Shown here one piece after another: positions 5,218 through 19,003 of a DNA stretch of 64,000 bases. Location of the stretch: the NCBI GenBank assembly GCA_002687905.1, contig NZBM01000015.1, positions 2,811-66,810 on the forward strand. The letters run 5' to 3'. Under the pieces are notes generated by a model. The model did no database searches. It had not been told where the DNA came from and saw only the letters and a program-made list of their open reading frames with translations. This DNA comes from a bacterium (GTDB lineage: Bacteria > Patescibacteriota > Minisyncoccia > Phycocordibacterales > JABMNX01). Each line of letters opens with the position of its first letter. Within the stretch, counting starts at the first letter, position 1. The position numbers were made by a program, and so were the translations under genes.

Positions 5218-6552
5218 ATGTGGAAAATACGCGGGCTAGCCATTTTAATACTGATAATAGGCCTATCTATAGGCTATTTTGTGTTCTCTTCCGAGAAATC
5301 GGATTCTGAATTTTCATTCAAATTTGGACTTGATCTGGCTGGTGGAACCCACCTTGTCTATCGTGCGGATACCAGTGCAGTAAATGAAAGCGATATACGC
5401 GAGTCAATGACAGCACTTCGTGACGTCATTGAAAGAAGAGTGAATCTATTTGGTGTTTCAGAACCTATTGTGCAAGCTGAGCGCGGGGGACGCCTTGCAG
5501 GCGTGGTTGAAGAGCGCCTTATTGTAGAGCTTCCCGGTGTAACTGATACAGCTGAAGCAGTTGAATTAATTGGTCAGACTCCGGTACTTGAATTTAGACT
5601 TCTTCGCGAAGATGTAGATTTGCCGCCAGAGCCACTTGATACAAGCACAATTGACCCTGATTCTATATTTTTGCCAGCTGAAATAACGGGAAGGCATTTA
5701 AAACGCTCTTTACTTGAATTTGGACAAGGGCACTCCGGGCTTTCAAATGAAGCTATAGTTGTTCTTGAATTTAACAGGGAAGGGGCAGATTTATTTGCTG
5801 AAATTACTAGAGAAAACGTCGGAGAAATCTTGGCGATCTTTCTTGACGGCTCGCCCATATCAACCCCGGTAATACAAAGCGAAATTACAGGAGGTAGTGC
5901 AACTATTACAGGAAACTTTGCCCCAGAGGAAGCCCGCGAGCTGGTGCGCAATTTAAACTTCGGAGCACTCCCACTGCCAATTGAGCTCATTTCGACTCAA
6001 ACCATAGGAGCTTCGCTTGGAGGGGAGGCGCTTGAAAGAGGTATAGAGTCTGGACTCTTTGGACTTGGTGCAGTGGCATTATTTATGCTTTTTTGGTATC
6101 GCTTGCCGGGAGTGGTGGCGATTTTATCTCTTTCAATTTATATCGCTATAATGCTCGCAATATTTAAACTGGTGCCGGTAACTCTTACCGCAGCAGGAGT
6201 TGCAGGATTCATTCTCTCAATTGGTCTTGCAGTGGACGCCAACGTTCTTATTTTTGAGCGAATGAAAGAGGAGCTTAAAGAAGGGAAAAATACTGAAGAT
6301 TCAGTAAGAGATGGATTTGCGAGAGCCTGGTTTTCAATTAGAGACGGCAATTCTTCAAGTATCATTACAGCCATCATTCTCTTTTGGCTCGGCACCTCAC
6401 TTATTGAAGGGTTTGCCCTTACCTTTGGTATCGGAGTTATTGTGAGCATGCTAAGCGCAATTACTGTGAGTCGTACGTTCCTTTATGCACTTGGAAATTA
6501 CAGCAATCGTGGGTTAGTGAGGGCTTTATTTGGTAGCGGTCTTTATAGGTAA
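5218..6552 (+). CDS. secD: protein translocase subunit SecD
   Basis: N-terminal TM anchor, periplasmic domain, C-terminal six-TM bundle. Followed directly by secF. Confidence 0.85.
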   Translation: MWKIRGLAILILIIGLSIGYFVFSSEKSDSEFSFKFGLDLAGGTHLVYRADTSAVNESDIRESMTALRDVIERRVNLFGVSEPIVQAERGGRLAGVVEERLIVELPGVTDTAEAVELIGQTPVLEFRLLREDVDLPPEPLDTSTIDPDSIFLPAEITGRHLKRSLLEFGQGHSGLSNEAIVVLEFNREGADLFAEITRENVGEILAIFLDGSPISTPVIQSEITGGSATITGNFAPEEARELVRNLNFGALPLPIELISTQTIGASLGGEALERGIESGLFGLGAVALFMLFWYRLPGVVAILSLSIYIAIMLAIFKLVPVTLTAAGVAGFILSIGLAVDANVLIFERMKEELKEGKNTEDSVRDGFARAWFSIRDGNSSSIITAIILFWLGTSLIEGFALTFGIGVIVSMLSAITVSRTFLYALGNYSNRGLVRALFGSGLYR

Positions 6553-7768: not shown

Positions 7769-7907
7769 ACCTACTGCTCTTGAGCAGTTTTTAGTTGCTC
7801 ATTGAAAATTTAGTAGCATACACAACAAAAAAGAGAGTTATCTCTTCTTTTGTTCTGTCCATTTCTTTTAAATCCGGTCTTCTCTAGCTTGCTAGAGAGA
7901 ACCAATT

Positions 7908-9607
<1,700 letters not shown>

Positions 9608-9845
9608 TGGAACCGTCGATGCATTTTATGCACTGACTTAATTGGTTGATATTCTATACCTCTGCCTGCCGGCAGAGGAATCTGAAGATTTTTCTGTAGT
9701 TGCAGTCAGACAAAGGTATAGAAATAAGCAATAGTGTTGTACTTTTATCTACACTCGTTTTCTCGCATATGCGGGAGGCGCCGGACGTGCGTTACCGGTA
9801 GGGTGGACAGAACAAAAGAGGGTGTAACTAAAAAATAATCACAAA

Positions 9846-9879
9846 AAATTTGCGACCCAACCGGTTGAGTCGCAAATTT
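9846..9879. repeat. 34-bp near-perfect palindrome (one mismatch) AAATTTGCGACCCAACC|GGTTGAGTCGCAAATTT
   Basis: Read directly in the 16S-tRNA spacer. It shares the core CAACCGGTTGAG with a 16-bp palindrome at 17641-17656. Confidence 0.85.
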
Positions 9880-9928
9880 TGGCCTGCCTCGCCGGCAAGG
9901 CGGGCTTTAAATATAAGGTTTTAAAGAA

Positions 9929-9957
9929 TTGACTTCTTCAATTTGATGTGGTAGTAT
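9929..9957 (+). promoter_or_regulatory. sigma70-type promoter (TTGACT, 17-nt spacer, TAGTAT)
   Basis: Near-consensus -35 and -10 hexamers with optimal spacing, about 35 nt upstream of the 9991 ORF and its GAGGAGAG Shine-Dalgarno site. Confidence 0.6.
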
Positions 9958-9990
9958 GCAGATAGTTGAAATAAATCGAGGAGAGATGGA

Positions 9991-10185
9991 ATGAGCCTCC
10001 TGAAAAGAGAGGACCAGACGTGGTCCATTCGGCAAGTTTCTTTCCAAGCTGTTGTGGCGTTTCTGTTCGTCTACTTGGCTATCGTGGTATTCCGGGTTGG
10101 TGGGGTTGCTTTCGGGCTTCCGGAGCCAGACCGCATTGCCGTTTTTGATCTCCCAGTCCAGTGGCTTCTTGGGCTACTGAAATGA
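9991..10185 (+). CDS. small hydrophobic protein (64 aa, one predicted TM helix) encoded inside the rRNA spacer
   Basis: Own promoter, a Shine-Dalgarno site GAGGAGAG 5-8 nt upstream, a predicted TM stretch AVVAFLFVYLAIVVFRVGGVAFGL, and a terminator hairpin right after the stop. Its codon usage is GC-rich and unlike neighbouring genes, so a structured RNA cannot be excluded. Confidence 0.4.
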   Translation: MSLLKREDQTWSIRQVSFQAVVAFLFVYLAIVVFRVGGVAFGLPEPDRIAVFDLPVQWLLGLLK

Positions 10186-10188
10186 GAA

Positions 10189-10224
10189 GGGCCCGGCGCA
10201 AAGCGCCGGGCCCAAGAAGTTTTA
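10189..10224 (+). terminator. intrinsic terminator hairpin (GGGCCCGGCGC-AAA-GCGCCGGGCCC followed by AAGAAGTTTT)
   Basis: An 11-bp GC stem directly after the small ORF. The U-tract is interrupted. Confidence 0.55.
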
Positions 10225-10262: not shown

Positions 10263-10288
10263 GCGATGCTCTGCATCGCTTTTTTAAA
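10263..10288 (+). terminator. intrinsic terminator (GCGATGC-TCT-GCATCGC followed by TTTTTTAAA)
   Basis: A 7-bp stem plus a T6 tract. It is a second terminator between the small ORF and tRNA-Ile. Confidence 0.6.
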
Positions 10289-10320
10289 TAAATATGCGGT
10301 GTGGTTACAAAACACAATAT

Positions 10321-10394
10321 GCGGGTGTAGCTCAGTTGGTTAGAGCGCGTCACTGATAATGACGAGGTCCTAGGTTCAAATCCTAGCATCCGCA
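10321..10394 (+). tRNA. tRNA-Ile (anticodon GAT)
   Basis: Cloverleaf folds by hand. Acceptor GCGGGTG/CATCCGC (one G-U), D-arm GCTC..GAGC, anticodon loop CTGATAA, T-arm CTAGGTTCAAATCCTAG, discriminator A. CCA is not encoded. Confidence 0.85.
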
Positions 10395-10395
10395 C

Positions 10396-11235
10396 ATGAA
10401 AATCGGATTTATAGGTCAGGGCTACATTGGGAAAAATTATGCTGACGATTTTGAAAATCGTGGTTACGATGTCGTTCGTTATGCCCTTGAGGAGCCTTAC
10501 AATGGTAATAAGGAAAAAATAAAAGACTGCGATATTGTCTTTGTTGCCGTCCCAACCCCTACAACACCAAAAGGATTTGATAGCTCAATTATTGAAGACG
10601 CACTGACTTTAGTTGGGGAAGGGAAAATTGCAGTTATTAAATCAACGATACTTCCTGGTACCACAAAAGATTTACAAGAGAAACACAAAGATATCCTACT
10701 CCTCTGTTCGCCAGAGTTTTTATCTGAAGCAACAGCTGCGCACGATGCCGCAAGCCCTTTTTCGAATATAGTAGGTATTCCAGAAGGGTCTCACAAATAC
10801 AAGGAAGCTGCCGATAAAGTACACTCTGTACTGGCTGAAGCCCCGTTTGTACTTACCTGCTCAAGCGTTGAGGCAGAAATTATCAAATACACCCACAATG
10901 GTAGTGGTTATACCCAGATAATGTTTTTCAATATTATGTATGATCTTGCCAACAAACTCGGTGGTGATTGGGAGCAAATTGAAAAAGCTGTGAAGGCAGA
11001 CCCTATGATATGTAATCGTTACGCTAGCCCCGTTCACAAAACTGGTCGTGGTGCAGGAGGACATTGTTTTATAAAAGACATTGCAGCACTTCGAGAGCTT
11101 TATGGCGAGACTATTCCGGAAGACAATAAAGGGTTTGAGGTTTTAGAAAGTATGGAGGAGAAGAACAAAAAGCTTCTAAAGGACTCTGACAAGGATTTAG
11201 ATTTACTTGAGGGAGTTTACGGAAAAGATATATAA
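10396..11235 (+). CDS. NDP-sugar dehydrogenase (UDP-glucose/GDP-mannose dehydrogenase family), short 279-aa form
   Basis: GFIGQGYIG Rossmann motif at the N-terminus, VFVAVPTP, KSTILPGTT, SPEFLSEATAAHD, and the catalytic-Cys motif GGHCFIKD. It appears to lack the usual C-terminal UDP-binding domain. ATG lies 2 nt after the tRNA 3' end. Confidence 0.7.
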   Translation: MKIGFIGQGYIGKNYADDFENRGYDVVRYALEEPYNGNKEKIKDCDIVFVAVPTPTTPKGFDSSIIEDALTLVGEGKIAVIKSTILPGTTKDLQEKHKDILLLCSPEFLSEATAAHDAASPFSNIVGIPEGSHKYKEAADKVHSVLAEAPFVLTCSSVEAEIIKYTHNGSGYTQIMFFNIMYDLANKLGGDWEQIEKAVKADPMICNRYASPVHKTGRGAGGHCFIKDIAALRELYGETIPEDNKGFEVLESMEEKNKKLLKDSDKDLDLLEGVYGKDI

Positions 11236-11243
11236 AGCGTTAG

Positions 11244-11290
11244 GCCGTCGCGTATTGCGACGGCCCTGAATCCGCTATAAGCGGTTTTTA
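11244..11290. terminator. bidirectional terminator region (two hairpins, GGCCGTCGC-GTATT-GCGACGGCC and CCGCT-ATAA-GCGG followed by TTTTTA)
   Basis: Read directly between convergent ORFs. Confidence 0.5.
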
Positions 11291-11503
11291 TCTGCCTTCG
11301 CCGATGACGGCGATTCCGCAGTCGTCCCCAGGCTTGAACCTCTTCTGCTTTGGCTCCTTGTGATCTGGCGCAAGGCCAGGACGGCTGCCTTGCAAACCGC
11401 CGCAGCGACGGCCCTCCGGTATGAGATCGGTTTCGGGGGTTTCTTCCCCAAGGTCTTTGATGACAGCCTCTGGTTCTTGTTGGGTTTTTTTGTTGCTACT
11501 CAA
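11288..11503 (-). CDS. possible small Pro/Glu/Lys-rich protein (71 aa, TTG start) in a GC-rich patch
   Basis: GGAGA Shine-Dalgarno site 6 nt upstream of a TTG start. Low-complexity sequence. It overlaps the 5' extension of the + strand ORF. Local GC is clearly above the flanks. Weakly supported. Confidence 0.2.
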   Translation of the reverse strand: MSSNKKTQQEPEAVIKDLGEETPETDLIPEGRRCGGLQGSRPGLAPDHKEPKQKRFKPGDDCGIAVIGEGR

Positions 11504-11600
11504 TTTTCTTCTCCCTAGAGTTTGTGTCTATTCCGCTAATTATTATGGCTTATATCAAGTGTCTATACAACCAAGCTACACTGATGTAGTGTGGTCAGAT

Positions 11601-13703: not shown

Positions 13704-13758
13704 TGTGACACTCTATCATAGAGCTTGCTCTTCGCACTCAAATCGATAGTATTGGCTG

Positions 13759-14468: not shown

Positions 14469-14735
14469 ATGTCAAAGGATTCAGTAATTTTAATACTAGG
14501 TATCGTCGTAGTGATAGTGCCATTTCTTGGTTTTCCTGGAATATTTGAGACGATTGCTTTTGTAGTTTCTGGAGCAGTAATAGCCGTACTGGCTTTTATG
14601 TTAAGGCGTGATATTGCAGAAGGGCTTCACTGCAAACCATTTGAGGAAGGGAAGACTACTGATACATACAGCCAAAACAATGCAAGGAAAAATGATAATG
14701 AGGAAAACGCTGAAAAATCTGAAGGGGAAGGCTAG
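14469..14735 (+). CDS. small membrane protein (two predicted TM helices, acidic tail)
   Basis: Hydrophobic N-terminal 45 aa. No recognisable family. Confidence 0.35.
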   Translation: MSKDSVILILGIVVVIVPFLGFPGIFETIAFVVSGAVIAVLAFMLRRDIAEGLHCKPFEEGKTTDTYSQNNARKNDNEENAEKSEGEG

Positions 14736-15903
14736 GCACAAATACGCCCCATACGCTTTTGCAGTAGTGGCAGCGGGTTTAATCCCTGCTGCTTATTTGG
14801 GTATTTCAGAGCTTTTGCCGGAGTCCTATGACGCAAAGGAAAATGCACCCGCTGAAGTGGTAGATGTTGTTGAGAACAAATTTGTGGTGACACATTTAAA
14901 GACTCCGGAGGCAGTAAAAGCAGTGTATATGAGCCAGTGCGTAGTTGGCACGCCAAGTTTTAGGAAGAAATTGGTGAATTTAATTGAAGAGACTGAATTA
15001 AATTCTGTTGTTATAGACGTAAAAGACTACACAGGAAAATTGTCGTTTGACACAAATCATCCGCTTCTTAAAGACAGCGTCTCGGACGAATGTGGTGCGT
15101 ACGATATGAAAGAGTTCTTAGGGGAGCTACACGAAAAAGGAATTTACACAATTGCTCGAATCACAGCATTTCAGGATCCTTATTACACAAGTATAAGGCC
15201 GGACCTTGCGGTGGCTAAAGGAAGTGCGACAAGCACAGTCTGGAAGGATTATCGCGGACTTTCTTTTATTGATGTTGGAGCTACAGAGTTTTGGGACTAT
15301 CTAGTGGCTATTGGAGAGGAGACATATAAAGTTGGTTTTGATGAGCTCAATTTTGACTATATTCGTTTTCCGTCTGATGGAGATATGAATGATATTTATT
15401 ATCCATTCAGTGAAGAGTTTGTAGTGTCTGACCCAGATCTTGGAAAGGCGCGAGTTGTAAGAGGATTCTTTTCATATCTTTCAAAAAAACTGCGACCGAC
15501 AGGCGCAGTGCTCTCGGCTGATCTTTTTGGAATGACTACAACAAACAAAGATGATCTAAATATCGGTCAAATATTAGAGTATGCTGACCCTTACTTTGAC
15601 TACATAGCACCTATGGTTTACCCAAGTCACTACCCGCCAAGTTTTCTTGGGCTTGAGAACCCAAATAAAAATATCTACAAAGTTATTCATTATTCTATGA
15701 GTGAGGGGGTAAAGAGGCTTACTAAAGCAAGCTCAACCCCATCAAAGCTTCGTCCGTGGCTACAAGATTTTGACTACGGTGGATATTACGGCAAAGAAGA
15801 AGTTCGCGAGCAGATTCAGGCAACGTATGATACCGGACTTACCAGCTGGATGCTCTGGGACCCGGCCAATATCTATACCAGAGAGGCTCTACTTAGTGAG
15901 TAA
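14698..15903 (+). CDS. membrane-anchored putative glycoside hydrolase (GHL / DUF4015-type TIM barrel)
   Basis: N-terminal signal-anchor AFAVVAAGLIPAAYLGI. Motifs VVIDVKDYTGK, GFDELNFDYIRFP. Start chosen at the MRK codon after an AAGGA Shine-Dalgarno site. The track ORF begins at 14608 in-frame upstream. Confidence 0.5.
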   Translation: MRKTLKNLKGKARHKYAPYAFAVVAAGLIPAAYLGISELLPESYDAKENAPAEVVDVVENKFVVTHLKTPEAVKAVYMSQCVVGTPSFRKKLVNLIEETELNSVVIDVKDYTGKLSFDTNHPLLKDSVSDECGAYDMKEFLGELHEKGIYTIARITAFQDPYYTSIRPDLAVAKGSATSTVWKDYRGLSFIDVGATEFWDYLVAIGEETYKVGFDELNFDYIRFPSDGDMNDIYYPFSEEFVVSDPDLGKARVVRGFFSYLSKKLRPTGAVLSADLFGMTTTNKDDLNIGQILEYADPYFDYIAPMVYPSHYPPSFLGLENPNKNIYKVIHYSMSEGVKRLTKASSTPSKLRPWLQDFDYGGYYGKEEVREQIQATYDTGLTSWMLWDPANIYTREALLSE

Positions 15904-15941
15904 ACTGACTCACTATATTTTCTATACTATACTGAATAATA

Positions 15942-17654
15942 ATGGATGATAATCCCGAGCAGATAAATTATTTTGCGGCCACCGACTCACGTGGCGTGAG
16001 GAAGCCTTTTGGTATTAAGGCTATTGACCGCGCCCGCCATATGTATGTGATTGGGAAGACCGGAATGGGTAAGTCTACACTCCTTGAGAATATGGCCATT
16101 CAAGATATTCAGAACGGAAACGGTATTTCTTTTATAGACCCCCATGGCTCCACAGCAGAGAAATTGCTTGATTATGTTCCAGAGAATCGAATTAAGGACG
16201 TAATATATTTTGCTCCTTTTGATATGGATCATCCTGTTGCATTTAACGTGATGGAGGATGTGGGCTATGACAAGCGCCACTTGGTGGTGTCGGGTCTGCT
16301 GGGTGCTTTTAAGAAGATTTGGGTTGACAATTGGAGTGCTCGAATGGAATACATTTTAACAAACACACTTCTTGCTCTTCTTGAGTACCCTGATTCAACT
16401 CTTCTTGATGTAAATAAGATGCTTATTAACAAGGCGTTTAGGGCTAAAGTTGTGGACAGGATTACTGACCCAATAGTGAAATCTTTTTGGGCCGAGGAGT
16501 TTGCTAATTATGGTGACCGCTATACACAAGACGCAACTCCTGCAATTCAAAACAAGGTAGGACAATTTACATCAAATCCGCTTATAAGAAACATTGTTGG
16601 CCAACCAAAATCCTCCTTTGATGTAAGGAAAATAATGGATGAAAAGAAGATTTTCATAGCTAACCTCTCAAAAGGGCGAATGGGGGAACAAAACGCAGAC
16701 CTTATAGGGAGTATGCTTACAACCAAGATTTACCTTGCAGCAATGAGTCGAGCCGGCGAGTCTACCGGCGTCCTCAATAACCTTCCACCTCATTATTTCT
16801 ATGTTGATGAATTTCAATCGGTAGCAAACGACTCTTTTGCAGATATTTTATCTGAAGCCAGAAAATACAAACTTGCTCTTACTCTTGCTCATCAATATGT
16901 AGAGCAGATGGAAGAAAACGTGAGAAATGCTGTTTTTGGAAACGTTGGTACGACAATAATGTTTAGAGTAGGACCACTTGATGCAGAACTTTTTGAAGCT
17001 CTTTGTAAGCCAAAGTTTACAGCAGAAGACTTAGTTAATTTGGGCAAATTTCAGATTTATTTGATGCTAATGATTGACGGAGTCGGCTCACAACCATTTT
17101 CAGCTATAACGCTTCCGTCAATTGAGGAGCCTGAAATTACGTTTCGCAAGCAAATTAATGAAAACTCACAAAAGACTTACGGAAGACCGCAACAAGTTGT
17201 TGAGAAAACAATTCGTGAGAGAAATGAAATAGAGGACTCACCGCAAAAAAGAAGTGAGAGAGCTCTTCAAAAACAACAAGAGAAGGAAAAATCCCAAAAC
17301 GGAGGCAGGTACAGTGGGGGAGGTTCAAATGGAGGAAGAAATAAACCAAGGCGCGAGCTAAATCGCCACGACAAGACTATCTCTCTTAAAGATCTTCGCT
17401 CAAAAATGAAAGAGGAGGATAGAGGCAAAGAGAAAGGAAAAAAAGAGCAGTTAAATGACCTACGCTCTGCTCTAAAAAGTGCCATAAGCTCGCATAAAAA
17501 AGGCGAGCCAAAGAAGGAAGAGTCAAAAGAGGAGAAACCAAAACCGCCAAAACAAGCACCAAGCCCACCTAAACCGGAAGAAAAGAAAAATGAGATATCG
17601 GAGGAGGAGCTTAAGCGAATTCTTAATGTCGAAAAAAACGACTCAACCGGTTGA
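15942..17654 (+). CDS. FtsK/HerA-superfamily P-loop ATPase (HerA/VirB4/TraD-like) with a roughly 170-aa Lys/Glu-rich disordered C-terminal tail
   Basis: Walker A VIGKTGMGKST followed by the FIDPHGS motif (HerA-type DPHG). Walker B-like YFYVDEF. The tail is KEKSQNGGRYSGGGSNGG...KPKPPKQAPSPPKPEEKK. Confidence 0.5.
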   Translation: MDDNPEQINYFAATDSRGVRKPFGIKAIDRARHMYVIGKTGMGKSTLLENMAIQDIQNGNGISFIDPHGSTAEKLLDYVPENRIKDVIYFAPFDMDHPVAFNVMEDVGYDKRHLVVSGLLGAFKKIWVDNWSARMEYILTNTLLALLEYPDSTLLDVNKMLINKAFRAKVVDRITDPIVKSFWAEEFANYGDRYTQDATPAIQNKVGQFTSNPLIRNIVGQPKSSFDVRKIMDEKKIFIANLSKGRMGEQNADLIGSMLTTKIYLAAMSRAGESTGVLNNLPPHYFYVDEFQSVANDSFADILSEARKYKLALTLAHQYVEQMEENVRNAVFGNVGTTIMFRVGPLDAELFEALCKPKFTAEDLVNLGKFQIYLMLMIDGVGSQPFSAITLPSIEEPEITFRKQINENSQKTYGRPQQVVEKTIRERNEIEDSPQKRSERALQKQQEKEKSQNGGRYSGGGSNGGRNKPRRELNRHDKTISLKDLRSKMKEEDRGKEKGKKEQLNDLRSALKSAISSHKKGEPKKEESKEEKPKPPKQAPSPPKPEEKKNEISEEELKRILNVEKNDSTG

Positions 17655-17662
17655 GTTGATTT

Positions 17663-19003
17663 ATGTGGCTTAGATTAGCCATATTTTCACTGCTCATTTT
17701 TCCAGGAACTGCTTTTTCGCAGGTTGTTATAAGTGAGATAATGTATGACCTTGAGGGCTCTGATACGGATAGAGAGTGGATGGAGGTTTTTAATGAAAGT
17801 TCTTCTTCGGTTGATTTATCCGGCTGGCGATTTTTTGAAGGAACAAGTAATCATAAACTTACTCTTAAGCAAGGAGGCGCGACTCTTGAGAGTGGGGAGT
17901 ACGCGGTGATAGTAGATGACGACGTTACGTTTCTAATTGATTGGCCGAATTATTCCGGGGCTCTTTTTGATAGCTCATTTTCTCTTAGTAATACTGGCGA
18001 GACTTTAATACTTAGAGACAGCGAACTCTCTGACATTGACTCTGTAACGTATAGCTCCGAGTGGGGAGGCAAAGGAGACGGAAACTCTCTTACCAGAGAT
18101 GATGGTGGTAATTTTTCAGGAGCTCTCCCAACTCCTGGAAGTGGAGATTTAAATTCTGAAGAAGGGAGCTCCGAAGAGTCTTCCGAAAGCTCTTCGAGCG
18201 GAGCTATCTCTGCGACCACTCCACTTTTTACTCCTGAAATTTTTGCCTACGCTGGAGAAGATAGGACAGTCACGGTTGGAGCTGACACAAAGTTTGAAGG
18301 GCAGTCTATAGGACTTGAGGGCGAGCCAATGACCAATGCTAGGTATCTGTGGAACTTTGGAGATGGGAGTATTCGTGAGGGTGAGAATGTACTTCATAAT
18401 TTTAAATATCCTGGGGATTATGTAGTGGTTCTGAACGTGTCATCTGGTCAGTATTCTGCATCGGATAAGATAGTGGTTAGTGCGCTCCCCGCGCAACTAA
18501 AAGTTGCGCGGGGAGAAGATGGAAGTGTAATTTTAGGAAATAGAGAAGATAGAGAAATTGACCTTTCTTGGTGGTACATAAAATCGGGAGACAAAACATT
18601 TCAGCTTCCTGAAATGACTTATATATTAGGGAGTAGCGAGATTAGATTTAGCTCCTCTGTTACTGAATTGTCCGAAATTGCCGAGCTATCACTTCTTTAT
18701 CCAAATGGCTCTATAGCCCTTTTAGAGTCCGAAAATGAGCCACAAAACCAAGTGCCTCAACAGGTAGTTACAGAAGTAGTGCCTAAGAAAAGGGCAGAAA
18801 TTCCTGTTATAGTGCCTGATATAGAGAGGGTTAGTGAGGCGGAAATAAAAGGTGAAGAACAGGTAGCGGCCCCTATCGCTGCTCGGGAATCGGATGATTT
18901 CTATAAATGGATACTTGCACTTTTTGGTCTGATTGGTTTAGGTGTAGGAGCGGGGCTTTATATTCAAAAAGAGGGAAAGGATGAATTTACTATAATTGAC
19001 TAA
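17663..19003 (+). CDS. secreted lamin-tail-domain (LTD) + PKD-domain protein with a C-terminal TM anchor
   Basis: Signal peptide MWLRLAIFSLLIFPGTAFS. LTD motif VISEIMYD...EWMEVFN...LSGW. PKD-like RYLWNFGDGS...HNFKYPGDYVVVLNVSS. C-terminal hydrophobic helix. Confidence 0.65.
   Translation: MWLRLAIFSLLIFPGTAFSQVVISEIMYDLEGSDTDREWMEVFNESSSSVDLSGWRFFEGTSNHKLTLKQGGATLESGEYAVIVDDDVTFLIDWPNYSGALFDSSFSLSNTGETLILRDSELSDIDSVTYSSEWGGKGDGNSLTRDDGGNFSGALPTPGSGDLNSEEGSSEESSESSSSGAISATTPLFTPEIFAYAGEDRTVTVGADTKFEGQSIGLEGEPMTNARYLWNFGDGSIREGENVLHNFKYPGDYVVVLNVSSGQYSASDKIVVSALPAQLKVARGEDGSVILGNREDREIDLSWWYIKSGDKTFQLPEMTYILGSSEIRFSSSVTELSEIAELSLLYPNGSIALLESENEPQNQVPQQVVTEVVPKKRAEIPVIVPDIERVSEAEIKGEEQVAAPIAARESDDFYKWILALFGLIGLGVGAGLYIQKEGKDEFTIID

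Follow-up and report, generated by a model that had tools for sequence, protein, structure and literature searches.

A tRNA-Ile gene abutting a dehydrogenase-like gene suggests tRNA-defined leaderless mRNAs in Patescibacteria that lack the anti-Shine-Dalgarno sequence

The stretch of DNA analysed here (the window, 64,000 nucleotides (nt) of contig NZBM01000015.1, GenBank assembly GCA_002687905.1) comes from a marine "Candidatus Pacebacteria" species of the Patescibacteria. In it, a gene for a two-domain relative of UDP-glucose 6-dehydrogenase (UGDH) begins one base after the discriminator of a tRNA-Ile(GAT) gene, in a genome whose 16S rRNA gene lacks the anti-Shine-Dalgarno sequence. The best explanation, and in our judgement a somewhat probable one, is that the two genes give a tRNA-mRNA co-transcript from which excision of the tRNA would release an mRNA with a leader of 0–1 nt. 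The elements of the junction are as follows:

10321–10394, plus strand: tRNA-Ile(GAT) gene, discriminator A10394; the cloverleaf folds with z = -2.25
10384–10389, plus strand: TAGCAT, a -10-like hexamer at tRNA positions 63–68, 6 nt before the ATG
10395, plus strand: spacer base C10395, the sole base separating the discriminator from the ATG and possibly C74 of the tRNA
10396–11235, plus strand: coding sequence (CDS) of 279 amino acids (aa), two-domain UDP-glucose/GDP-mannose-dehydrogenase-like

Rfam places the tRNA at 10321–10394 (76 bits), and ARAGORN calls tRNA-Ile(GAT) at 10321–10395, with one extra C counted in. Read from the sequence, the acceptor stem pairs GCGGGTG with CATCCGC, including a G5.U68 wobble, CCA is absent from the gene, and the start codon of the CDS is the ATG at 10396–10398. 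The product begins MKIGFIGQGYIG, with the segment GFIGQGYIG from residue 4. Its frame is closed upstream by an in-frame TAG (10384–10386) that lies within the tRNA and forms the first three letters of TAGCAT. No ATG, GTG or TTG occurs between this stop and the ATG at 10396, and no alternative start codon was found in the first 40 codons of the CDS. Homologues match in start position (e.g. MKIGFIGQGY in locus L077 and MKRPLIGFIGQG in L070). ATG 10396 is the sole possible start of the 279-aa CDS. Six independent assemblies of the species agree exactly in the junction region, and four of them span the whole tRNA and its upstream sequence; the junction is therefore not an assembly artefact. The species is also present in TARA sample ERR594290 and JGI sample 3300035250. 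A preliminary description of this DNA had placed the CDS directly after the tRNA, with a start that cannot lie further downstream and no leader other than the tRNA itself; Rfam, the sequence, the six assemblies and the homologues bear out each of these points. The alternative it had allowed for, an in-frame start upstream, is not present. The first ∼20 nt of an mRNA that begins at the AUG are predicted to be unpaired. What distinguishes this CDS is that it has no promoter space outside the tRNA gene.

The 3′ end of the 16S rRNA gene (9594–9607) reads GGATCAATTCCAAT, where the bacterial norm is GGATCACCTCCTTA. Its terminal letters are GGATCAATTCC rather than ...CACCTCC, and AUUCC stands where the anti-Shine-Dalgarno (anti-SD) CCUCC is expected. 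The 16S tails of two relatives, found via the neighbouring Mur ligase gene, are GGATTAATTCC (L083) and AGAATATTTCC (L084). Tails without CCUCC also occur in 23 loci beyond these two, and the relatives carry (A/T)TT(T/C)C variants. Loss of the anti-SD has been reported for about half of Parcubacteria (PMC9297842).

The corresponding mRNA signal is at background level among the window genes. The Shine-Dalgarno (SD) core motif precedes 7 of the 54 genes, against a background of 10.7%, and is not enriched. By comparison, of the 20 genes whose upstream gap measures 30 nt or more, 10 have a -10-like hexamer of the form TANNNT 4–10 nt ahead of the start codon (background 12.4%, p = 5e-5), and many of these start-adjacent hexamers have TTGnnn 16–17 nt further upstream. 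Such operon-first genes, with TANNNT 5–9 nt before the start, include those at 5218, 13759, 15942, 35070, 58342 and 58961. Across 25 related loci with a 16S gene lacking CCUCC, the hexamer stands at a 5–9 nt spacer in 34% of genes, with a mode of 6 nt, compared with 12% per equal-sized window further upstream; a comparison set with a normal anti-SD held 22 genes with crude start assignment and is too small to inform. We read TANNNT near start codons as the signature of leaderless genes, and leaderless starts appear to be the normal mode for operon-first genes here, on a ribosome that by these signs works without SD/anti-SD pairing. In most internal genes of the window the start overlaps the stop codon of the gene before or lies very close to it, so that translational coupling is possible. 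The preliminary description had called for a count of leaderless starts and SD usage, which the figures above supply for the window genes, and had stressed that the CDS leaves no room for an SD site. This is true at the locus; it is not special to the CDS, because the 16S rRNA gene has no anti-SD and the window genes as a whole show SD motifs at the background rate.

Abutment of a gene on a tRNA recurs in relatives. Scanning metagenome contigs with a degenerate form of this tRNA-Ile(GAT) type gave 120 loci, and ARAGORN and an open reading frame (ORF) script were run on all fetched loci; an exact-match scan of metagenome contigs for the 3′ half of the window tRNA found nothing. An ORF was counted as abutting when it is 100 aa or longer and starts no more than 3 nt from the ARAGORN tRNA end. 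Abutment was found in 6 of 46 non-redundant tRNA-Ile(GAT) loci of the Candidate Phyla Radiation (CPR) type. In a seventh tRNA-Ile locus the ORF starts 6 nt past the ARAGORN end, that is, 7 nt after the discriminator, and one tRNA-Ala locus (L056) is also abutted. The junction in the window is more than chance: 7 of 69 tRNAs are abutted in CPR-type loci versus 2 of 281 in other loci (Fisher p = 2e-4), and both of the latter cases look spurious. In these anti-SD-less Paceibacteria, six of the 46 tRNA-Ile genes and the tRNA-Ala gene are each followed, 1–4 nt after the discriminator, by a real gene other than that of the window. Seven further junctions were recorded (L056, L144, L170, L174, L177/L206, L199 and L171), of which L171 is less certain. 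The window and the others read as follows, in the order discriminator, spacer and start codon:

Window, tRNA-Ile: A, C, ATG; UGDH-like protein, 279 aa
L056, tRNA-Ala: A, C, ATG; RluA-type pseudouridine synthase
L174, tRNA-Ile: A, CA, ATG; membrane protein
L199, tRNA-Ile: A, CC, ATG, the A of the ATG being the A of the encoded CCA; MurD
L170, tRNA-Ile: A, CCAA, ATG; cysteine-desulfurase/methyltransferase fusion, 1019 aa
L177 and L206, tRNA-Ile: A, CATA, ATG; class-V aminotransferase
L144, tRNA-Ile: A, CTGGATT, ATG; secreted or membrane protein

By sequence criteria the abutting ORFs are real genes. Pfam domains start at residues 10–21 in the pseudouridine synthase, two class-V aminotransferases and MurD; the ATG is the sole possible start in L056, L170 and L177; and independent gene callers picked the same starts, including NCBI's for L170. 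Every 16S tail visible in the abutted loci lacks CCUCC, and the non-CPR loci of the same scan have a CACCTCCTT tail and a tRNA-Ala beside the tRNA-Ile. The fusion gene of L170 (7098–10157, minus strand) encodes a class-V aminotransferase (cysteine-desulfurase-like) with a C-terminal S-adenosylmethionine-dependent methyltransferase domain and directly abuts the tRNA-Ile.

Two comparisons bear on how such junctions persist. L170 and L199 are in synteny: their MurD proteins share 76% identity, in an alignment that begins at residue 1, and the next three genes stand in the same order. In L170 the order is tRNA-Ile, desulfurase, MurD, and murD has its own leaderless-type promoter (TAAAAT, 6 nt, ATG). 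In L199 the desulfurase gene is absent, and the ATG of murD overlaps the encoded CCA of the tRNA-Ile. Since the first gene after the tRNA abuts it in both loci, the junction was rebuilt after an insertion or deletion. L206, which comes from a different assembly and has a T-loop substitution, keeps the junction of L177 together with its promoter (TTATAGTAT-ccccac-tRNA). Most related tRNA-Ile genes have clear promoters 9–21 nt upstream, for example TTGAAA-17-TAAGAT followed by 11 nt and the tRNA in L199, and TTGCTT-17-TATTTT with the same 11-nt distance in L056.

We propose the following route for the window. The tRNA-Ile(GAT) gene and the dehydrogenase-like gene would form one transcription unit, running from shortly upstream of the tRNA to a pair of hairpins at 11243–11289. 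RNase P would cleave the 5′ side of the tRNA, and a tRNA 3′ endonuclease, either RNase Z-type or the lineage's own, would cleave after A10394 or C10395. A CCA-adding enzyme would complete the freed tRNA, and the downstream fragment would be an mRNA with its 5′ end 0–1 nt before the AUG. The anti-SD-less ribosome, with leaderless mRNAs as its normal mode, would then initiate on this 5′-terminal AUG. For the gene, the tRNA would play a dual role, supplying a strong constitutive promoter and defining the 5′ end of the mRNA. Applied across the abutted loci, excision of the tRNA would leave a 5′ end 0–4 nt before the AUG. We infer co-transcription, the cleavage site, the enzyme responsible and translation of the processed RNA from the sequences and their comparison. 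Indirect signs of co-transcription are that the tRNA and the CDS leave no room between them for a terminator or a conventional promoter, that terminator-like hairpins flank the pair, and that relatives have promoters close upstream of the tRNA.

The exact site of the cut would set the leader length. In Propionibacterium acnes, which lacks RNase Z, the cut that removes the tRNA 3′ trailer was mapped one base past the discriminator, between the two Cs of the encoded CCA (PMC3848588). A cut after C74 in the window would likewise make the mRNA begin exactly with the AUG. The preliminary description had proposed an RNase Z/P route with a 1-nt leader; abutments in relatives favour the processing, but a cut after C74 would give 0 nt. 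Its view that the mRNA is probably leaderless remains the most likely outcome on this evidence. As for the tRNA itself, most tRNA genes in the loci (L001–L085 and L086–L205) have the discriminator and a single C followed by an A-rich stretch (e.g. GCAC followed by AAAA) rather than CCA, and a minority of the closely related tRNA-Ile genes encode CCA. Because CCA is mostly unencoded, a CCA-adding enzyme is required. A search of the related loci for RNase Z gave only an unrelated metallo-hydrolase-like ORF, and the CPR papers searched make no mention of the enzyme.

Several observations weigh against a tRNA-processing origin of the mRNA. An ORF resembling RNase Z (HxHxDH, metallo-beta-lactamase) was sought in the window and none was found. 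No convincing -10 box (TANNNT) was found in the 35 nt directly upstream of the tRNA (10286–10320), unlike in most relatives. A processed mRNA with a 5′-monophosphate may be unstable. Abutment occurs in only about 10–15% of related tRNA-Ile loci and is a lineage option, not a rule. Homologues of the CDS occur in 70 genomes, each of a different GTDB species, and in none of them does a tRNA abut the homologue; the specific pairing is confined to one species. Lastly, TAGCAT stands 6 nt before the ATG, the clade's modal spacing for putative leaderless promoters, and a primary transcript starting at the AUG is possible.

This last point leads to an account that dispenses with tRNA processing, in which TAGCAT (10384–10389) is the -10 element of a promoter inside the tRNA gene and transcription starts at or next to A10396, yielding a triphosphorylated primary leaderless mRNA. 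The hexamer fits TANNNT, its 6-nt spacing is the mode for the genome as well as the clade, TA(C/G)CAT lies 6–12 nt before the ATG in five of the seven abutting tRNA-Ile cases, and both the AUG start and the predicted unpaired 5′ end suit a primary leaderless mRNA. However, the recognisable promoters of the clade usually have a TTGnnn -35 element, and at 16–17 nt the window has GACGAG or ACGAGG instead. The hexamer is moreover ordinary tRNA-Ile sequence of the lineage, common in loci without an abutting gene (TACCAT in L084 and many relatives), and read-through from the tRNA's own promoter would tend to occlude a promoter placed there. The G5.U68 wobble was considered as an adaptation that makes the -10 box and was rejected, for the tRNA-Ile of L084 has the same wobble and TACCAT with no gene after it. 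The L056 tRNA-Ala and the L177/L206 tRNA-Ile, whose sequence at this place is TACCAG, abut genes although their 3′ ends contain no TANNNT; as a general account an internal promoter therefore fails, whereas processing would fit every case. We consider an internal promoter, the main rival, unlikely for the window, and the comparative evidence, with different genes abutting tRNAs in relatives, favours tRNA processing. A further alternative needs no defined 5′ end at all: the ribosome would enter at the AUG of the unprocessed precursor, independently of an SD, through an unstructured A/U-rich start region. Internal operon genes here must also initiate without an SD, and no structure is predicted from the AUG onward. 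Against this, the 74 nt upstream form a stable cloverleaf that would occupy the mRNA channel and platform region, and the window's internal genes can couple to a preceding stop codon while the tRNA offers no such coupling. Internal entry also leaves the clustering of starts 1–4 nt after the discriminator unexplained, and we regard it as improbable.

There is also the possibility that the juxtaposition is fortuitous, the product of rearrangement or insertion at a tRNA hot spot, with a gene that is poorly expressed or becoming a remnant. The species-specific pairing speaks for it. The closest homologues (L070, L077 and L078–L082) have other upstream neighbours, either glycosyltransferase clusters, within which the gene lies in relatives, or a promoter of their own, as in L070 (TTGGAA-17-TATAAT, 9 nt, ATG). 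The tRNA-Ile gene is, in addition, a site of rearrangement or integration in the clade: in L083, at 8930–9093 on the minus strand, 35 nt of the tRNA-Ile 3′ part are repeated in direct orientation 54 nt downstream of the tRNA itself. This duplicate looks like a scar of site-specific integration or excision, which would make the tRNA-Ile gene a recombination hot spot in the clade. But the ORF is intact and identical in the six assemblies, comparison with the 76%-identical homologue of L077 gives a dN/dS of 0.05, and the putative catalytic residues C224, K227, D228, K164 and N168 are invariant in 47 homologues. With a confident predicted fold (AlphaFold2 model, pLDDT 92.5), these data argue that the gene is functional and under purifying selection, and they contradict the unexpressed remnant that the preliminary description had named as a refuting outcome. 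Abutment also recurs with essential genes such as murD, whose product is a core peptidoglycan enzyme and must be expressed. The window has neither an att-like repeat of the tRNA 3′ end nor an integrase next to the CDS. Mere accident thus seems very improbable to us.

A genomic island at the 3′ end of the tRNA was rejected on the same absence of an att-like repeat and an adjacent integrase; a second copy of the 23-nt tRNA 3′ end was sought in the 64 kb with up to 3 mismatches allowed, and none was found. The best homologue of the neighbouring Mur ligase is 58% identical, and so no close sister species is present in the databases. L083 and L084 share the 16S/tRNA-Ile/Mur ligase neighbourhood with the window, and the genes after their tRNAs differ.

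The dehydrogenase-like protein forms a subject of its own. Pfam detects the N-terminal NAD-binding Rossmann domain (PF03721, E = 1.6e-16, profile positions 71–181 only) and the central domain (PF00984, E = 3.7e-15); no match to the C-terminal UDP-binding domain (PF03720) was found in the 279-aa protein. The GxGxxG motif lies at residues 7–12, and the N-terminal domain falls about 35 residues short of the profile. The score against TIGR03026 is 138.3, below the cutoff of 189.8. Residues 39–242 align with residues 104–306 of the 424-residue Klebsiella Ugd chain, including the Lys/Asn (AEIIKYTHN) and Cys/Asp (GGHCFIKD, of the GGxCxxKD type) catalytic motifs. Foldseek comparison of the predicted model with UGDH structures gives template-modelling (TM) scores of 0.77–0.83 when normalised to the query and about 0.5 when normalised to the target. 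The protein thus has in common with the UDP-glucose 6-dehydrogenase family (PF03721, PF00984 and PF03720; TIGR03026) the fold of the NAD-binding and central domains and the catalytic Cys, Asp, Lys and Asn. It differs in lacking the C-terminal UDP-binding domain and in falling below the TIGR03026 cutoff. These features mark it as a two-domain relative rather than a canonical member of the UDP-glucose/GDP-mannose dehydrogenase family.

The preliminary description had rightly noted that the C-terminal domain is missing, as the Klebsiella Ugd alignment it called for, ending at residue 306 of 424, also indicates. The enzyme is short, as it had said, but is not unusual in this: among the best 120 matches listed, all come from Patescibacteria and almost all are 277–330 aa long. 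Its idea of a C-terminal truncation does not hold up, for the short form is, judging from these matches, a conserved two-domain "mini-UGDH" family in Patescibacteria. A tblastn search of the window for a second paralogue or a separate gene for the C-terminal domain found neither. In L079, L080 and L081 the mini-UGDH gene (2001–2879) overlaps the next gene, a GT1-family glycosyltransferase starting at 2839, by about 41 nt, and a GT4 gene precedes it. The overlap suggests translational coupling, and a mini-UGDH/GT1 complex could possibly supply the missing nucleotide-binding function.

The junction is flanked on both sides by candidate transcription and processing signals, as follows:

7836–9829, plus strand: pre-16S processing stem, an inverted repeat with arms 7836–7861 and 9804–9829 (85% complementary) enclosing the 16S gene
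7908–9607, plus strand: 16S rRNA gene (Rfam RF00177, 1371 bits)
9845–9880, plus strand: near-perfect palindromic hairpin with A and T runs on its flanks, terminator-like on both strands, just past the 16S processing stem
9929–9957, plus strand: promoter-like TTGACT-17-TAGTAT, between the 16S gene and the tRNA
9991–10185, plus strand: small ORF of 64 aa, hydrophobic and GC-rich, with GAGGAG ahead; called as a gene in some assemblies
10189–10213, plus strand: hairpin GGGCCCGGCGC/GCGCCGGGCCC, upstream of the tRNA
10263–10279, plus strand: intrinsic-terminator-like hairpin GCGATGC/GCATCGC, followed by T6 at 10280–10285
10286–10320, plus strand: A/T-rich 35-nt stretch directly upstream of the tRNA, the expected place of the tRNA promoter
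11243–11265, plus strand: hairpin GGCCGUCGC/GCGACGGCC, directly after the stop codon of the CDS
11272–11284, plus strand: hairpin CCGCT/AGCGG, followed by T5; the pair of hairpins at 11243–11289 has z = -3.36

The hairpins at 11243–11289 are likely the end of the tRNA-CDS transcription unit, and the tRNA and CDS together look like a unit insulated at either side. The tRNA is the only one that the window carries. It sits 713 nt downstream of the 16S gene rather than in a normal spacer; the corresponding distance in relatives is 200–1850 nt. The 16S gene itself is 1700 nt long against a 1533-nt model and contains about 170 nt of insertion(s), and no 23S gene was found near it in the window.

The segment at 9929–10215 is GC-rich (50–60%) and contains, in order, the near-consensus promoter, the SD-like GAGGAG, the 64-aa ORF and an 11-bp all-GC hairpin. 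It may be of foreign origin, because an SD-like site is out of place where the anti-SD has been lost. A Pfam search of the 64-aa ORF gave no match, and the ORF has no similarity to a type IV secretion system pilin gene in the equivalent spacer of L083. A second GC-rich patch (11250–11450, 57–64% GC) lies just past the CDS terminators and overlaps an antisense 71-aa ORF and the uncertain N-terminus of an NlpC/P60-like ORF. The start of the latter is disputed: the ORF in the window is 216 aa long, and gene calls across assemblies give 203, 170 and 156 aa. Within this ORF, a 20-nt inverted match of the tRNA D-arm region (11562–11581) was dismissed as chance, Rfam (E up to 1) finding nothing tRNA-like there.

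Further downstream, the Mur ligase (Mpl-like) and RsmI-like genes diverge from a 55-nt gap (13704–13758) that contains two back-to-back promoters, each with its -10 box (TAGAGT and TAGTAT) 6 nt from its own ATG. A block at 14608–19003 encodes RsmI, a small ORF, a DUF4015 glycosyl-hydrolase-like protein, a TrwB-like coupling ATPase, a surface protein with LTD and PKD domains and an epimerase; it is syntenic in L083 and L084 despite Mur ligases that are only 57–58% identical. A large glycan-biosynthesis cluster occupies the window from about 19 kb onward.

The closest known system is the tRNA punctuation of mitochondria, reportedly described by Ojala, Montoya and Attardi in 1981. There, as in the window and its relatives, tRNA genes stand directly against coding sequences; RNase P and RNase Z set the mRNA ends by excising the tRNA, which we propose for the window likewise; and leaderless mRNAs are read by ribosomes without an SD/anti-SD interaction, the anti-SD being lost here too. 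CPR ribosomes resemble mitoribosomes in the proteins and rRNA segments that they have lost (PMC9297842). The present case departs from mitochondria in several ways, however. The window belongs to a bacterium, free-living or episymbiotic, whose genome has ordinary promoters and terminators; genes abut only a minority of its lineage's tRNAs, about 10% in the sampled loci; the tRNA would define the mRNA at its 5′ end alone, the 3′ end having its own terminator; and the processing is deduced from sequence.

Other precedents match in part. Escherichia coli has a tRNA-mRNA co-transcript in the thrU-tyrU-glyT-thrT-tufB operon. In Thermococcus kodakarensis a tRNA-Lys lies within the 5′ untranslated region of TK0306 (PMC4247193). 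These systems have in common with our proposal a shared promoter for the tRNA and the protein gene and a tRNA that is cut from the precursor. They differ in that a leader of tens to hundreds of nt is left after the tRNA, with an SD in E. coli, and that the cut does not create the translation start. Primary leaderless mRNAs, as known in Actinobacteria, Deinococcus and Mollicutes (e.g. PMC4633059, PMC3848588 and PMC4681348), likewise have the AUG at or near the 5′ end and no SD. Their -10 element lies about 6–8 nt before the start, an arrangement that most operon-first genes of the window resemble. In those mRNAs, however, the 5′ end is the transcription start and the anti-SD is retained, whereas here the anti-SD is lost and a 5′-monophosphate end made by processing is proposed. 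A literature search for a bacterial precedent of a tRNA-defined leaderless mRNA found none, which is weak evidence since its coverage was incomplete; a similarly incomplete search for an account of translation initiation in anti-SD-less Parcubacteria also found none.

We tentatively extend the proposal from the window to the lineage, in a form that we find plausible but would stop short of calling probable. Anti-SD-less Paceibacteria/Parcubacteria would translate mostly leaderless mRNAs and would repeatedly exploit tRNA 3′ processing to make them, a convergent bacterial form of tRNA punctuation in which selection re-creates the abutment after rearrangements, as between L170 and L199. Selection would restore the exact abutment because a promoterless gene would be expressed only if its AUG came to lie at an RNA 5′ end.

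The locus and its relatives suggest how anti-SD-less Parcubacteria start translation, namely on AUGs at RNA 5′ ends, which would mostly be set by promoters 5–9 nt upstream; as a recurrent minority route, the AUG would be exposed by excision of an abutting tRNA. Gene-calling and expression tools built on SD models will mis-handle such genomes. The mini-UGDH family, widespread and highly conserved without a nucleotide-binding domain, offers a separate lead for the cell-envelope glycobiology of CPR bacteria. If the proposed route is true, the locus would provide the first case in bacteria of tRNA punctuation serving leaderless translation, and another mitochondrion-like trait of CPR ribosome biology.

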